From NCBI GenBank assembly GCA_014360645.1, contig JACIXD010000016.1, positions 12,395 to 76,394 of the forward strand: a DNA stretch of 64,000 bases, in the 5' to 3' direction. The notes under the pieces are model-generated. The model was not told the DNA's origin, did no database searches, and saw only the letters and a list, made by a program, of their open reading frames with translations. The stretch is from Actinomycetota bacterium (GTDB taxonomy: Bacteria; Actinomycetota; Geothermincolia; Geothermincolales; RBG-13-55-18). The stretch's first letter is position 1; every line of letters starts with the position of its first letter. A program made the translations under genes and the position numbers. Of the stretch, positions 3,216 through 15,880 are shown in pieces.

Positions 3216-3265
3216 AGCGAAGATCGAAGATACGACCCCATTAAGAAGATCGAAGATACGACCCC
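3216..3265 (-). repeat. Two tandem REP1 copies (reverse orientation)
   Basis: GAAGATCGAAGATACGACCCC appears twice. Confidence 0.7.
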
Positions 3266-3379
3266 ATTAACTATTGCATAACTTATCTATTTGTAATAAC
3301 ATAACGATATTATGCTGACGGTCGGAGAGTGGCGTAAGCGGTGGAGGAGCTATACAGCATCCATGCGAAACCGAACCCG

Positions 3380-3466
3380 GGGGTCACATCTTCGATCTTC
3401 GACTCCGGTAACTTATGGCCTGGTCAAGTTAAGTAAACTTGCATCGAAGATCGAAGATACGACCCC
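3380..3466. repeat. REPIN (inverted REP1 pair) immediately upstream of the RAYT gene
   Basis: REP1 (+) lies at 3380-3408 and REP1 (-) at 3442-3466, separated by a ~33-bp spacer. Confidence 0.65.
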
Positions 3467-3495
3467 ATCATTCCGCGGAGGTCAGTGCGAAAGCC

Positions 3496-4452
3496 ATGGC
3501 AAGACAGCTCAGAATCGAGTTCCCGGGCGCCCTATATCATGTCTTCTCCAGGGGCGTCGCCAAGCAGCCCATCTTCGAGTCGGATGAGGACCGCGCCAGG
3601 TTCCTGGACATCCTGGGCAAGGTGGTGGAGCGGCATAACTGGATAATCCACGCCTACTGCCTTATGGGGAACCACTACCACTTGCTGGTGGAGACGCCGG
3701 ATCCCAACCTCTCCCGGGGCATGCAGCTGCTGAACGGCGTCTACGCCCAGCGTCACAACGCCGAGCACGGACGGGTTGGCCATCTCTTCCAGGGGAGGTA
3801 CGGCAATACCCTCGTCGACAAGGAAGAGTACTTCCTCGTCGCGGCGTGCTACATCGTGCTCAACCCGGTGAGGGGAGGACTGGTGGAACACCCTTCCGCC
3901 TATCGCTGGAGCAGCTATAGAGCCACAGCTGGGGCTGAGAAGGCGCCGTCTTTCCTCCACATCAGCAGCATCCTGCTCTGCTTCGCGCCCGACCTGCACA
4001 TGGCGCAGAGGCTTTACCGTGAGTTCGTCGACGGAGGCATAGACGAGGAGACAGCACGGCGACTAGAGTCGGGCGGGGTCTGCGGCGGGGAGGTATTCCA
4101 GGCCTGGGTGGGCGAGATAGTCGAGGGGAGGAAACGGATACGGGAGATACCCCGCAGGCAGAGATACGTGGGGAGGCCGTCCCTGGCGCGTATACTCGAT
4201 GGGTGGGCGGACCAGCGGGAGAGGGACGAGAACATAGCGCGGGCGGTGCAGGACTTCGGGTACACCCAGAAGGAGGTCGCCGACCACCTAGGCCTTGCCC
4301 CCTCCACCGTGAGCGTCATCATGAAGAGGGTCGGGCAGGGATCGAGTGGTGCCCCGGGCGGGGTCAGATCTTCATCGGGCGGGGTCAGATCTTCATTCTT
4401 CGATCCCGGCAGTATTGAGCAGAGCGGGCAGAGCGATCTCGAATCCTATTGA
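3496..4452 (+). CDS. REP-associated tyrosine transposase (RAYT; IS200/IS605-like Y1 HUH transposase, TnpA_REP) with a C-terminal HTH
   Basis: The translation MARQLRIEFPGALYHVFSRG…MGNHYHLLVETP carries the HuH motif, and the catalytic Tyr region RWSSY follows. The C-terminus has an HTH (DFGYTQKEVADHLGLAPSTVSVIMKRV). The gene is flanked on both sides by REP1/REPIN copies. The last ~35 codons read through REP sequence. Confidence 0.75.
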   Translation: MARQLRIEFPGALYHVFSRGVAKQPIFESDEDRARFLDILGKVVERHNWIIHAYCLMGNHYHLLVETPDPNLSRGMQLLNGVYAQRHNAEHGRVGHLFQGRYGNTLVDKEEYFLVAACYIVLNPVRGGLVEHPSAYRWSSYRATAGAEKAPSFLHISSILLCFAPDLHMAQRLYREFVDGGIDEETARRLESGGVCGGEVFQAWVGEIVEGRKRIREIPRRQRYVGRPSLARILDGWADQRERDENIARAVQDFGYTQKEVADHLGLAPSTVSVIMKRVGQGSSGAPGGVRSSSGGVRSSFFDPGSIEQSGQSDLESY

Positions 4453-4479
4453 ATTCCGAAGCATCGGGCGGGGTCAGAT

Positions 4480-4696
4480 CTTCATTCTTCGATCCCGGCA
4501 GTATAGTCAGAGCGAGCACGTCGATTTCTAGCCATCTTTGCCCGCATCGAAGATCGAAGATGTGACCCCAGATTTCCTCATCGGGCGGGGTCAGATCTTC
4601 ATTCTTCGATCCCGGCAGTATAGTCAGAGCGAGCACGTCGATTTCTAGCCATCTTTGCCCGCATCGAAGATCGAAGATGTGACCCCAGATTGTTAA
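4480..4696. repeat. Two tandem copies (period 117 bp) of a REPIN: REP1(+) – 46-bp spacer – REP1(-)
   Basis: REP1(+) copies lie at 4480-4508 and 4597-4625; REP1(-) copies at 4555-4579 and 4672-4696. The two ~100-bp units are near-identical. A further REP1 and a half copy lie at 4370-4419. Confidence 0.75.
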
Positions 4697-5063: not shown

Positions 5064-5172
5064 CCATCGAAGATGGTTGTGTCTTCAATCCAGGTAAGTG
5101 AGCATGCGCGGCAACATTGGTTGGGGAGCAAACATGGCGCTTCCGGGTTCTGCGGACCTCGCTGAGCCAAGC

Positions 5173-5244
5173 CATTCACATTGAAGAATGAAGATACGAC
5201 CCCAAAAGGAAGCTATTCACATTGAAGAATGAAGATACGACCCC
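5173..5244 (-). repeat. Two tandem REP1 copies (reverse) within a 40-bp tandem unit
   Basis: TTCACATTGAAGAATGAAGATACGACCCCAAAAG appears twice. Confidence 0.65.
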
Positions 5245-5415
5245 AAAAGTCGCGTGCCCGCTTGGGAACGCGGGGTCCTCCTCGCCGGGACGGGACCGCC
5301 CGGGAGCGGTCCCAGGGGTCGTATATTTAGCTCAGCCCTTTCCGTCCGGACCCCGGGAGCGCCGATAATGGTATTCCAATATATGGAAAGTAATTCAAGA
5401 TGCAAGACCTGACCC

Positions 5416-9091: not shown

Positions 9092-9115
9092 CATCGAAGA
9101 TCGAAGATGTGACCC
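9092..9115 (-). repeat. REP1 half-site with flanking sequence matching the right arm of the MITE-like element
   Basis: CTGACCTGCCGGCATCGAAGATCGAAGATGTGACCC. Confidence 0.6.
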
Positions 9116-9123
9116 AATACAAA

Positions 9124-9156
9124 ATTGAATTATAATTGAATTATAATTGAATTATA
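9124..9156 (+). promoter_or_regulatory. AT-rich 11-bp direct repeats (TTGAATTATAA x3) upstream of the ligase gene
   Basis: Island of under 15% GC in a 65% GC genome, about 80 bp upstream of the 9233 start. Likely a promoter or binding site. Confidence 0.4.
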
Positions 9157-9232
9157 ATAATATAATGGTCGCGGATGCGATAGTTATCAGCGGGCTGCAG
9201 GATCGGGCTTGAGTTCGAGGGAGGGACATTCC

Positions 9233-11020
9233 ATGACCGATTTCCGGCATTTCTACGATGACATACTCGCGTCTTTCGCCAGGTACCCCGCTATCATCCA
9301 TGGAGATGAGGTCATCACCTACAGGGAGCTGGATGAGCGCACCAACCGCCTCGCCCACGCCATGCTGGAACTGGGGATTAAACGCGACCACAACGTGGGC
9401 ATAGCGGAATATAACACCCCCGCGTTCCTGGAGGTGGTGGCTGCCGCCTTCAAGGTGACCGCGCGTGCCGTGACCCTGAACTTCAAGTTCAAGGAATGGG
9501 AACTCAAGCATGTCATAGAGGACGCAGGCATGGAGACGGTGTTCTTCAACGAGGACATAGCCGACCGCATGGTGAACCTGCGCCCTGAGCTGCCGGGGGT
9601 GAAGAACTACGTCATCATCGGCGAGCGCCGTGTCGAGGGCATGCTCAACTATTCCGAGATCGTACGGGGTAGGCCGTCCACTGCCCCCACCCCGCCATGG
9701 CCAGAGTTCAGCGGCGACGACGTGGTGGTGCTCATGTACACCGGGGGCACAACCGGGTATCCGAAAGGAGTGATCTACACCCATGACCAGGTGTTAAGCG
9801 CGCCACTCGAGGCGATGATCCGCAATTTCGCGGGCGGACTGAGAGACCTCTCCAAGGCACCACCCCAGGTCTTCAAGGGCATCGAGAAGACCCTGAGAAT
9901 CCCCGGCGCCGCGCGCACCCTCCCTTGGCTGCTCTCGCGTGAGGCCACCCGCAGGGCGCTGATAGTCGTGGGCAAGAAGGCAGGCCCCTTCATCATCAAG
10001 GCCCCGGACCCCCTGATCAGGGCGATACTCTTCCTCAACGCCAGGCTCACGGGAGGGAAGGTGAGGATGCTGTTGGCCAGCCCCATGATGCACGCCTGGG
10101 CCTACAACCACGCCCTCATCGGCATGATCGGAGGTTTCACCAGCATCCTCCTGCCCTCCAAGAGCTTCGAGGTCTCGGAGATGATCTCGGCCATAGAGAA
10201 GCACCGCGCCAACGTGCTGGTGGCGGTGGGCGACGGGCAGTGCCGGCCCTTTGCCGATGAGCTCGACCGCGCCGCCGCCGAGGGGAAGCGTTACGACCTG
10301 GGTTCTCTCCTGGTTGTGCTCTCCAGCGGCATGGCACTCTCCGTAGACGTGAAGCGAAGGCTGCTCGAGCACCTCCCACAGCTCATCATCCTGGACGTGC
10401 TGGCCTCAACGGAGGGGCATTACATCTCCGTCACTCCCTACACCGCCGCGGACCGTGAGCTGGAGAAGACCGTCTTCAGGGTGAGCGACATGGTCAAGGT
10501 CATAACCGAGGATGGGAGGGAGGCCCGGCCGGGCGAGATCGGGGAGGTGGCGGTAGCCCGCGAGCACCAGGGCTCCTCGGGATATTACGGCGACGCCGAG
10601 AAGACGGCGCGCACCTACCGCAAGGTGGGCGGCAAGACCTACATCTTCACCGGCGACATGGCCTCAGTGGACGAGAAAGGACACATACACCTCATAGGCA
10701 GGGGATCCGGCTGTATCAACACTGGGGGCGAGAAGGTGTTCCCTGAGGAGGTGGAGGAGGTGCTCAACCGCCACCCCGCGGTGGAGCTCTCGGGTGTCAC
10801 CAGCGTTCCCCATCCCCGCTGGGGAGAGGCGGTCACGGCGGTGATACAGTTAAAGCCGGGGGAACAGGCCGACGAGGAGGAGATAAAGGCGTGGTGCAAA
10901 GAGTATCTGGCTGATTACAAGGCCCCCAAATACGTGCTCTTCGTGGACGAGCTGCCGCGCCTGATCACCGGCAAGGTACATTACCGCGAGATCAAGCAGT
11001 TGGTACAGGAGAAATTCTAG
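9233..11020 (+). CDS. AMP-dependent synthetase/ligase (acyl-CoA synthetase family)
   Basis: Motifs YTGGTTGYPKGV and TGD…GSGCINTGGEKV…GK are present. RBS GGAGGGA lies 6 nt before the ATG at 9233. An alternative ATG lies at 9209. Confidence 0.8.
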   Translation: MTDFRHFYDDILASFARYPAIIHGDEVITYRELDERTNRLAHAMLELGIKRDHNVGIAEYNTPAFLEVVAAAFKVTARAVTLNFKFKEWELKHVIEDAGMETVFFNEDIADRMVNLRPELPGVKNYVIIGERRVEGMLNYSEIVRGRPSTAPTPPWPEFSGDDVVVLMYTGGTTGYPKGVIYTHDQVLSAPLEAMIRNFAGGLRDLSKAPPQVFKGIEKTLRIPGAARTLPWLLSREATRRALIVVGKKAGPFIIKAPDPLIRAILFLNARLTGGKVRMLLASPMMHAWAYNHALIGMIGGFTSILLPSKSFEVSEMISAIEKHRANVLVAVGDGQCRPFADELDRAAAEGKRYDLGSLLVVLSSGMALSVDVKRRLLEHLPQLIILDVLASTEGHYISVTPYTAADRELEKTVFRVSDMVKVITEDGREARPGEIGEVAVAREHQGSSGYYGDAEKTARTYRKVGGKTYIFTGDMASVDEKGHIHLIGRGSGCINTGGEKVFPEEVEEVLNRHPAVELSGVTSVPHPRWGEAVTAVIQLKPGEQADEEEIKAWCKEYLADYKAPKYVLFVDELPRLITGKVHYREIKQLVQEKF

Positions 11021-12245: not shown

Positions 12246-12313
12246 GAAGACGCCTCCAACACCGAAGATGCCCGCCGGGAGCTTTTATATTTTAACACAA
12301 CGGATCGCGTAAC

Positions 12314-12493
12314 GGGGTCAGATCTTCGATCTACGATACCAATATATGGGTAATATTCGTGATTTAAACGGCCAACGGCTACCTGATCGCATTGAAAAAG
12401 TAAGGGGTCAGATCTTCGATCTACGATACCAATATATGGGTAATATTCGTGATTTAAACGGCCAACGCTACCTGATCACATGATCACATTGAA
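12314..12493 (+). repeat. Two tandem copies of a 90-bp unit (REP1 plus an AT-rich segment CCAATATATGGGTAATATTCGTGATTTAAACGG)
   Basis: REP1 copies at 12314-12340 and 12404-12430. The units are near-identical. Confidence 0.7.
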
Positions 12494-12744
12494 AGAGAGG
12501 ATCGGGATCTCATTGAAAACGAAGATCCAAAATAATGCCTATGGCACTTTATCTATAATAACGAGGTCAAATTCTCGACGACGGCGACTTATGCTTTAGC
12601 AACTGAGCTGTGGGTACCCGTCTTATCCCCAACCCCGAGCGCAGCGCCTGTGCCTTGTAAGTAAAGCAAAATTGATGCCAGACCCCCGTTTGGCGTTGGC
12701 GCTGGCCGCGTCGATGTTCGGAGAGAACTCGATTGGCAGACAAT

Positions 12745-12944
12745 GCATCGATGATCGAAGATCGAAGATCTGACCCCATCGGGGAATGCATCGATGATCG
12801 AAGATTGAAGATCTGACCCCATCGATCATCTGACCCCATCGGGGAATGCATCGATGATCGAAGATCGAAGATCTGACCCCATCGAGGCCCCATCGAGGCC
12901 CATCGAGGCGCGTCAATGTGTCGAAGATCGAAGATCTGACCCCA
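12745..12944 (-). repeat. Array of four REP1 copies (reverse) within ~50-bp tandem units
   Basis: ATCGATGATCGAAGATCGAAGATCTGACCCCATCG is repeated. The last copy forms the 3' end of the downstream dehydrogenase ORF. Confidence 0.7.
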
Positions 12945-15084: not shown

Positions 15085-15127
15085 CACGGGGGGAGGGGAA
15101 AGGGAGGGAAAAGGGGCCGTGGCGTTC

Positions 15128-15168
15128 ATAATATATATTTATAATTAATATAATGATATATTATATTA
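15128..15168 (+). promoter_or_regulatory. Very AT-rich promoter-like segment directly upstream of the tRNA-like gene
   Basis: TTCATAATATATATTTATAATTAATATAATGATATATTATATTA. A TATATT hexamer ends 7 nt before the first G of the acceptor stem. Confidence 0.5.
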
Positions 15169-15257
15169 GGGAGCACGAGACTGGTGTCTCCCGCGGGCTG
15201 CAAACCCGTTGGCCGGCTCTGAAAAAGTCGGGGTGGGTTCGATCCCCACTGCTCCCC
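15169..15257 (+). tRNA. tRNA-like gene with a class-II-like long variable arm and anticodon loop CUGCAAA (GCA)
   Basis: Acceptor stem GGGAGCA/TGCTCCC (7 bp). T arm GTGGG-TTCGATC-CCCAC. D arm GAGAC-TGGT-GTCTC (5-bp stem, 4-nt loop). Anticodon stem GCGGG/CCCGT with loop CTGCAAA. The variable arm is ~22 nt (CCGGC…GTCGG). The discriminator is C and CCA is not encoded. Confidence 0.5.
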
Positions 15258-15334
15258 TCCAGCCATCTTCACCACCTCACGCTCTCCGGCCCCGAAAAGC
15301 GGTGGTGGCGGCGACCCGTTGCCGCTTATCACGG

Positions 15335-15880
15335 CCTTGCGTGTTCCTCCCACGTCACGCCCGGCTTACTTGAAAGATCCTCCCGGAAGTGAAAGTGACG
15401 GGTGCGGCATAGCGTGTTCCTCCCACGTCACGCCCGGCTTACTTGAAAGATCCTCCCGGAAGTGAAAGTGACGGGTGCGGCCTCGCGTCTTCTTCCCACG
15501 TCACGCCCGGCTTACTTGAAAGATCCTCCCGGAAGTGAAAGTGACGGGTGCGGCATAGCGTGTTCTTCCCACGTCACGCCCGGCTTACTTGAAAGATCCT
15601 CCCGGAAGTGAAAGTGACGGGTGCGGCATAGCGTGTTCCTCCCACGTCACGCCCGGCTTACTTGAAAGATCCTCCCGGAAGTGAAAGTGACGGGTGCGGC
15701 CTCGCGTCTTCTTCCCACGTCACGCCCGGCTTACTTGAAAGATCCTCCCGGAAGTGAAAGTGACGGGTGCGGCATAGCGTGTTCTTCCCACGTCACGCCC
15801 GGCTTACTTGAAAGATCCTCCCGGAAGTGAAAGTGACGGGTGCGGCATAGCGTCTTCTTCCCACGTCACGCCCGGCTAAC
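15335..15880. repeat. Tandem array of a 73-bp unit (8 copies of the core CACGTCACGCCCGGCTTACTTGAAAGATCCTCCCGGAAGTGAAAGTGACGGGTGCGG) with a 3-unit higher-order period
   Basis: Read directly. Unit variants A, B and C recur in the order A-B-C-A-B-C-A-D. There are no unique spacers. Confidence 0.85.

Follow-up and report, generated by a model that had tools for sequence, protein, structure and literature searches.

A short gene with the anticodon GCA, a long variable arm and a D arm resembling that of selenocysteine tRNAs lies in the 64-kb stretch of actinobacterial DNA that was analysed here (the window), and it raises the question of which kind of tRNA this combination encodes. The sequence features suggest that it is likely a cysteine tRNA built on the plan of a bacterial selenocysteine tRNA, that is, a selC*/tRNAReC member acting via cysteinyl-tRNA synthetase (CysRS) and SelB. 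The gene belongs to this family, and charging with Cys and delivery by SelB would follow what has been published for other members. The family itself has already been described; unusual in the present case are the actinobacterial host, the stand-alone position of the gene and its A1·C72 pair.

The site holds a true tRNA gene. ARAGORN called a tRNA-Cys (GCA) at 15169–15257 (89 nt), the sole tRNA gene in the 64-kb window, and the Rfam tRNA-Sec model RF01852 matched the same stretch with 59.2 bits (gathering score 47, E 1.8e-9). Additionally, a structural pattern for the tRNA gave one match in the window and none in 100 shuffles. The tRNA fold proposed in the initial annotation was thus supported by both predictors, with a score above the threshold rather than below it. 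Direct reading and folding confirmed the proposed D arm (5-bp stem, 4-nt loop), the T loop UUCGAUC and the long variable arm, which had been put at about 22 nt and measures about 23 nt with a 6-bp stem, while the CUGCAAA anticodon loop with GCA agreed with both the reading and ARAGORN. Judged from its sequence, the gene is probably functional. The coordinates of the features are collected in Table 1.

Table 1. Coordinates of the tRNA gene, its neighbouring elements and related loci. Positions refer to the window unless a locus number (L) is given.
Feature	Position	Strand	Description
Predicted tRNASec-like tRNA-Cys (tRNAReC/selC* type)	15168–15261	+	94 nt including encoded CCA; ARAGORN, Rfam, family model R1, fold
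Acceptor 5' strand	15168–15175	+	AGGGAGCA
Acceptor–D linker	C15176	+	1 nt
D stem and loop	15177–15190	+	GAGAC UGGU GUCUC; 5-bp stem, 4-nt loop
Anticodon stem	15193–15197 / 15205–15209	+	
Anticodon loop	15198–15204	+	CUGCAAA; anticodon GCA at 15200–15202
Variable arm	15210–15232	+	about 23 nt; 6-bp stem 15213–15218 / 15226–15231
T arm	15233–15249	+	GUGGG / UUCGAUC / CCCAC; 5-bp stem
Acceptor 3' strand	15250–15257	+	UGCUCCCC
Discriminator	U15258	+	family-register reading
Encoded CCA	15259–15261	+	family-register reading
Near-pure A/T block (putative promoter)	15128–15168	+	41 nt, directly upstream of tRNA
Two hairpins after tRNA	15270–15330	+	CACCACC...GGUGGUG 15270–15307; GCGGC-loop-GCCGC 15308–15325; then UUAUC
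Tandem array	15332–15877	.	73-bp unit, 7.5 copies, 96% matches (TRF)
Syntenic MBL-to-ChsH2 spacer in relatives	L171; L168; L165		99 bp; 345 bp; 520 bp with unrelated repeats
Family loci with downstream selB-like GTPase	L092 1542–3400(-); L163 987–1058(+); L042, L046, L062, L100, L113, L145		
Phage tRNA(GCA)	L004 8525–8611(-); L005 5467–5552(+); L012 1849–1941(+); L037 8167–8251(-)		about 30 more viral loci (L004–L041)
Cloacimonadota A/G-GCCA loci	L043, L048, L058, L061, L065, L068, L086, L093, L105		
Cloacimonadota A/G-GCCA loci, continued	L107, L119, L121, L122, L142, L148, L150, L152, L161		

Relatives of the gene were sought by scanning one genome per species with the pattern UGGU-R, 11 nt, CUGCAAA, a long gap and GGUUCRANNCC, which identified at least 120 loci. 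Among the matches listed, at least about 90 are Sec-like tRNAs with the GCA anticodon, and their hosts (again among the matches listed) include Desulfofundulus, Desulfotomaculum, Desulfovirgula, Carboxydothermus, Thermodesulfovibrio and other Nitrospirota, Thermosulfurimonas, Deltaproteobacteria, Armatimonadota, Cloacimonadota and at least three Actinomycetota MAGs. These are largely the taxa of the described selC* tRNACys/tRNAReC (PMC5389517, PMC7609411, PMC13582414). Matches of the first broad pattern to phage class-II-shaped tRNA(GCA) genes, and its protein-coding false positives (Prochlorococcus, IscU-like genes), were excluded from the family. A metagenome scan with a pattern tuned to the anticodon and T arms of the tRNA yielded three more distant members and no close relative.

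At least 54 of the loci, including the window and its duplicate in assembly GCA_030018255.1 (L001), parse as an 8-nt acceptor strand followed by U and CCA, as a rule with a T stem of 5 bp. From this U73 group, 39 relatives were aligned with the window left out, and the alignment was the source of a covariance model (R1). Its RNAalifold consensus has an 8-bp acceptor stem, and covariation is strong, with double compensatory changes in 16 of 21 pairs; acceptor pair 3, for example, occurs as GC in 16 sequences, AU in 15 and GU in 8. Model R1 matched the window tRNA end to end (15168–15261, all 96 positions) with 88.1 bits and an E value of 4e-21, which places it at rank 31 of 89 among the matches listed and inside the range of the training sequences (80–102 bits). 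The tRNA is 73–80% identical to members from Desulfofundulus, Desulfotomaculum and Ammonifex. The check for conservation and covariation in related genomes, which the initial annotation had proposed, uncovered a family in which paired changes are widespread.

The ends of the molecule were read differently by different methods. The ARAGORN parse has a 7-bp stem with C15257 as discriminator, and the initial annotation had likewise described 7/5 acceptor and T arms with discriminator C. This description was not borne out, as the family covariance model, built without the window, puts nucleotide 1 at A15168, the discriminator at U15258 and the CCA at 15259–15261, giving 8/5 arms, U73 and an encoded CCA. 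The 3' end of the tRNA accordingly reads UGCUCCCC-U-CCA. In the acceptor stem, the 5' strand AGGGAGCA, A15168 included, pairs with UGCUCCCC at seven of eight aligned positions; the eighth is the terminal A1·C72, the sole non-standard pair in the R1 alignment of the tRNA, and the T stem has 5 bp. Both ARAGORN and the initial annotation arrived at 7 bp plus C73 because the mismatched terminal pair was dropped, so the apparent anomalies of the 7/5 arms and C73 probably arise from the placement of the ends. Since the relatives end in an 8-nt strand followed by U-CCA and R1 sets the window in this register, 8/5 with a terminal A1·C72 is the better reading of the ends, and 7/5 with C is probably a mis-parse. 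Such genes are otherwise labelled as tRNA-Sec (Rfam) or as an odd 7/5 tRNA-Cys (ARAGORN), and the family register removes these anomalies for annotation.

The first acceptor pair matters for CysRS recognition (PMC5389517), and A1:U72 forms are a described subtype requiring a dedicated CysRS* (PMC5389517, PMC7609411). Among the matches listed, nearly all family members carry G1:C72; A1:U72 is present in one member (L113), and A·C at 1:72 recurs in a deltaproteobacterial MAG (L084). The rare A1·C72 variant, at a pair read by CysRS, is thus documented in the window and in L084. GCA_030018255.1 and four independent SRA assemblies (L174–L177) all contain the tRNA locus in identical form, and A1·C72 is therefore not an assembly error. 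The mismatch may be neutral, may weaken Cys charging or may alter 5'-end processing.

The closest relative among the matches listed is the tRNA of the Actinomycetota MAG Ch49 (L140, GCA_013178005.1), which is 91% identical, equal in length and has G1:C72 as its first pair. Between the window and this relative, the fourth and fifth acceptor pairs exchange places (A:U, G:C to G:C, A:U) and the second pair of the D stem changes from G:C to A:U, while in the variable stem one G:C becomes G·U and one C·A mismatch becomes U:A. These paired changes indicate that the structure of the tRNA is under maintenance. In the genome of the relative, the homologous tRNA occupies another locus, upstream of a large S8-peptidase-like gene. 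An AT-rich block was observed about 50 nt upstream of it, and downstream (L140 6150–6260, minus strand) an element of about 35 nt, AAAAGCRCATGCCTGCAATACATCCAATGCGCC, occurs twice, about 90 nt apart. The repeats beside the tRNA are not homologous between the two genomes.

Upstream of the window tRNA, the AT-rich block claimed in the initial annotation was confirmed as almost pure A/T, and it is rare, with just one other block in the whole window reaching 26 or more A/T positions out of 30. Candidate elements in and around it are TTCATA (15125–15130) and TATAAT (15149–15154), separated by an 18-nt spacer, and a sigma-70-like consensus scan gave two sites where 0.4 were expected. A candidate extended -10 element, TGATATATT (15154–15162), was also read from the sequence; transcription from it would start at about 15168/15169, coinciding with the predicted mature 5' end of the tRNA. 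The block is predicted to be the tRNA's own promoter. The other near-pure A/T block of the window (9115–9170), with a tandem TTGAATTATAA, lies upstream of an AMP-binding (acyl-CoA synthetase-like) gene at 9209–11020. Between the stop codon of the MBL hydrolase and the AT block by the tRNA, a purine tract with five G-runs, GGGGGGAGGGGAAAGGGAGGGAAAAGGGG (15088–15116), was observed, which could form a G-quadruplex.

On the 3' side, a terminator scan detected no canonical intrinsic terminator between the tRNA and the repeat array, and the two hairpins that follow the gene can therefore only be proposed as a possible stop, weak or factor-independent, for its transcript. The 73-bp array has 3.5 copies in GCA_030018255.1. 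Its period is not a multiple of 3, its fold z-scores of -0.02 and -0.73 are no better than those of shuffled sequence, an Rfam search of it was negative, and the other fetched loci all lack the unit. Short-read contigs stop within about 20 nt of the array start. The array is treated here as a neighbouring minisatellite, separate from the tRNA.

The genes flanking this region are bacterial and include beta-oxidation genes, AFOR, MerR, a PAS histidine kinase and DUF5719, in a window with a GC content of about 65%. The tRNA locus is also found on contig JASEGD010000027.1 of GCA_030018255.1. The MBL hydrolase upstream is annotated by NCBI as belonging to an Actinomycetota MAG, and Candidatus Solincola and Geothermincolia are among its relatives. 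Three relatives with a 77–79% identical MBL hydrolase lack a tRNA in the spacer between the MBL and ChsH2 genes; one of these syntenic loci (L165) belongs to the same MAG as the closest tRNA relative, L140. The tRNA, the AT block and the repeats thus represent a lineage-specific insertion of about 770 bp, and the gene may accordingly be a copy that moved or was duplicated recently. A normal tRNA in relatives at this position, considered in the initial annotation as a sign of a decayed duplicate, was not observed at the three syntenic sites. Nor did the synteny route yield intermediates by which the G1-to-A change could be dated.

The lineage is rich in intergenic repeats. In the window, dispersed copies were observed at 3219–3270, 4355–4396, 4462–4691, 5169–5249, 12309–12481 and 12742–12885, with the core GAAGATCGAAGATNTGACCCC / GGGGTCAGATCTTC, often as tandem or inverted pairs, and a related AAGATACGACCCC motif lies in the syntenic spacer of a relative (L165 4940–5210). 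These repeats are REP-like and specific to the lineage. An IS200-like (Y1 transposase) ORF with an HTH domain is located among them (3439–4452), about 11 kb from the tRNA.

The tRNASec-like tRNACys family, which came to light when its members were wrongly picked up by the tRNASec model, is called selC* tRNACys by Mukai (2017, PMC5389517); the name tRNAReC is credited in PMC13582414, PMC11415595 and PMC7609411 to Vargas-Rodriguez (2018, RNA Biol 15:471). CysRS identity depends mainly on U73 and GCA (PMC5389517), and U73 is used as a family criterion (PMC13582414, PMC5389517). The window tRNA combines the features by which the family is recognised, namely the RF01852 score, a length of at least 80 nt (94 nt), a long variable arm, the GCA anticodon (GCA or UCA being accepted for the family) and an aligned U73. 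The initial annotation, which had suggested as its first option a Sec-derived recoding tRNA reading Cys codons, was right in kind, but it did not recognise that the family was already known. Its statement that a long variable arm is not seen in any canonical tRNA-Cys is correct, although a non-canonical family of exactly this shape has been described.

The Sec-like tRNACys(GCA) of Desulfotomaculum nigrificans is reportedly charged by CysRS and carried by SelB, whereas EF-Tu ignores it, and it decodes UGA as Cys (PMC11415595, PMC13582414). By analogy, U73 and GCA would make the window tRNA a substrate for CysRS, and its Sec-like shape would exclude it from EF-Tu and hand it to SelB. Through this hand-over, Cys would be delivered to SECIS-directed UGA codons, possibly also to UGC, and selenoprotein genes would be read with cysteine.

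At the loci of at least eight family members, a selB-like GTPase gene starts about 50–150 nt downstream of the tRNA, which corresponds to the selC*-selB* arrangement. No selB-like GTPase was found beside the tRNA in the window or in L140; motif scans and Pfam detected no selB, selA, selD or cysS within the 64-kb window, and SelB/EF-Tu-type GTPase motifs were absent from it as well. A genome that encodes the Sec apparatus (selA, selB, selC, selD) is a further criterion for the family. No convincing in-frame UGA read-through gene was identified within the window, the best candidate being two adjacent genes for a dTDP-sugar dehydratase and a GT2 glycosyltransferase. In the actinobacterial locus L092, the selB-like G1 motif and the main ORF are apparently split by a frame break or a stop.

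The family assignment has to be weighed against readings in which the gene is no longer active or works in another way. The tRNA could be a copy in decay or without function, derived from a tRNAReC gene by transposition or duplication, which lacks the first base pair and is no longer active in translation. The A1·C72 mismatch is consistent with this, as are the tRNA-free syntenic sites in relatives, the different genomic position of the closest homologue, the repeats that surround the tRNA and the missing adjacent selB, which many family members have. However, all other stems are intact, the changes relative to L140 are compensatory, U73 and the encoded CCA are retained, and an AT-rich promoter-like block, of which the window has two in all, lies directly upstream; moreover, the sequence is invariant over six datasets, and the A·C pair recurs independently in L084. 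Decay is therefore considered unlikely. The same mismatch might instead act as a functional switch, a proposal that we regard as quite unlikely: with the terminal pair open, a Sec-shaped, class-II-like tRNA-Cys with a 12-bp branch would result, which would escape SelB and use EF-Tu for ordinary Cys codons, or would depend, like the A1:U72 forms, on a CysRS variant of its own. If true, this switch would be set in an actinobacterial lineage with a stand-alone gene and no selB beside it, with transcription perhaps beginning right at the mature 5' terminus under the control of the extended -10 element.

Three further readings depart from the family altogether. A novel class-II-shaped tRNA with a canonical 7/5 branch, C73 and a CCA added after transcription, carried by EF-Tu and reading Cys codons with an unknown amino acid, would match ARAGORN's own parse, and A15168 is unpaired in the MFE fold; on the model of tRNA-His and tRNA-Sec processing, RNase P may also cut after the unpaired A and leave a 7-bp stem. 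Against this stand the U-CCA that follows the stem in register with the U73-CCA of the family, the alignment of all family-model positions, and a length equal to that of the 8/5 relative L140, from which it differs by paired substitutions and not by indels. C73 is also no known identity element of CysRS or SerRS (PMC5389517), and this reading is very unlikely. It is still harder to regard the tRNA as a Sec or Ser acceptor with a Cys anticodon, charged by SerRS via its long variable arm, converted by SelA and inserting Sec (or Ser) at UGC/UGU. A natural tRNASec with a GCA anticodon does exist (PMC11415595), U73 is tolerated in presumed Ser-accepting allo-tRNAs (PMC5389517), and the Sec-like tRNA(GCA) genes of Cloacimonadota end in A/G-GCCA and not in U-CCA. 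Nevertheless, the window tRNA has both U73 and GCA, the two strongest CysRS determinants (PMC5389517), and groups with the U73 clade and not with the A/G-GCCA clade of Cloacimonadota, which makes this role highly improbable. The proposal in the initial annotation that the tRNA-like structure is the 5' module of a longer non-coding RNA running into the 73-nt array gained no support. Although no canonical intrinsic terminator separates the two, and the array and the promoter are on the same side, the tRNA has its own encoded CCA end followed by two hairpins, and the array lacks structure beyond shuffles and any Rfam match, varies in copy number between assemblies and is not conserved, with different or no repeats in the relatives, L140 included. 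Such a transcript is extremely improbable.

Other tRNA genes with the GCA anticodon were encountered in the scan. Large phage contigs carry 85–93-nt tRNAs with GCA, a long variable arm and an ordinary D arm inside tRNA arrays; the two commonest forms have U after the acceptor stem, and one of the contigs (L005) additionally encodes a normal 75-nt tRNA-Cys. These phage genes look like class-II-shaped tRNA-Cys, unlike the Sec-like family. In Cloacimonadota, the Sec-like tRNA(GCA) genes with A/G-GCCA ends form a tight clade, whose members may be genuine tRNASec that insert Sec at UGC through a Cys anticodon, and not tRNAReC.

For the window tRNA, the selC*/tRNAReC assignment adds an uncultured, deep-branching anaerobic lineage of Actinomycetota, together with at least three further Actinomycetota MAGs, to the hosts of Sec-shaped cysteine tRNAs. 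Compared with canonical bacterial tRNA-Cys, it shares GCA and U73, whereas the canonical form is a class I tRNA of about 74 nt with a variable loop of 4–5 nt, 7/5 arms, an ordinary D loop and delivery by EF-Tu. The allo-tRNAs of Acidobacteria, Clostridia and Proteobacteria (PMC5389517) have a Sec-like D arm, a long variable arm and a non-serine anticodon in common with it. However, their branch of 12 bp is 8/4 or 9/3, and they have Ser identity (G73/U73 and the variable arm), while the window tRNA groups with the U73/GCA Cys family and has an 8/5 branch (7/5 if the A·C pair is ignored) rather than a 12-bp 8/4–9/3 one. The allo-tRNA-like character considered in the initial annotation is accordingly not supported, given the 5-bp T stem.

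Bacterial tRNASec (selC, RF01852) is similar in overall shape, in the 13-position acceptor/T branch, in the long D stem with its tetraloop, in the long variable arm and in the CU-NNN-AAA anticodon loop. In contrast, canonical tRNASec has UCA and G73 where the window has GCA and U73, which sets it outside that class; the window tRNA also has a single acceptor–D linker nucleotide. Bacterial tRNASec accepts Ser and then Sec, whereas Cys would be expected here by analogy. Within the tRNAReC/selC* family, several differences were observed. Members mostly have G1:C72, or A1:U72 in a Desulfobacterales subgroup, and the window has A1·C72. Deltaproteobacterial selC* shows a modified 8/4 branch with a bulge, and in the Desulfofundulus-type members of the present set a single base bulges out of the T stem on its 5' strand, while the window tRNA has a clean 5-bp T stem and, in the family register, is 8/5 as in ordinary bacterial tRNASec. 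Furthermore, neither PMC13582414 nor the main text of PMC5389517 names Actinomycetota among the selC* hosts, and the adjacent selB*/cysS* of other selC* genes is not present beside this one. With tRNAReC/selC*, the window tRNA shares the Sec-like cloverleaf, the long variable arm, the 4-nt D loop, GCA and, in the family register, eight aligned acceptor positions (seven of them standard pairs), U73 and the encoded CCA.
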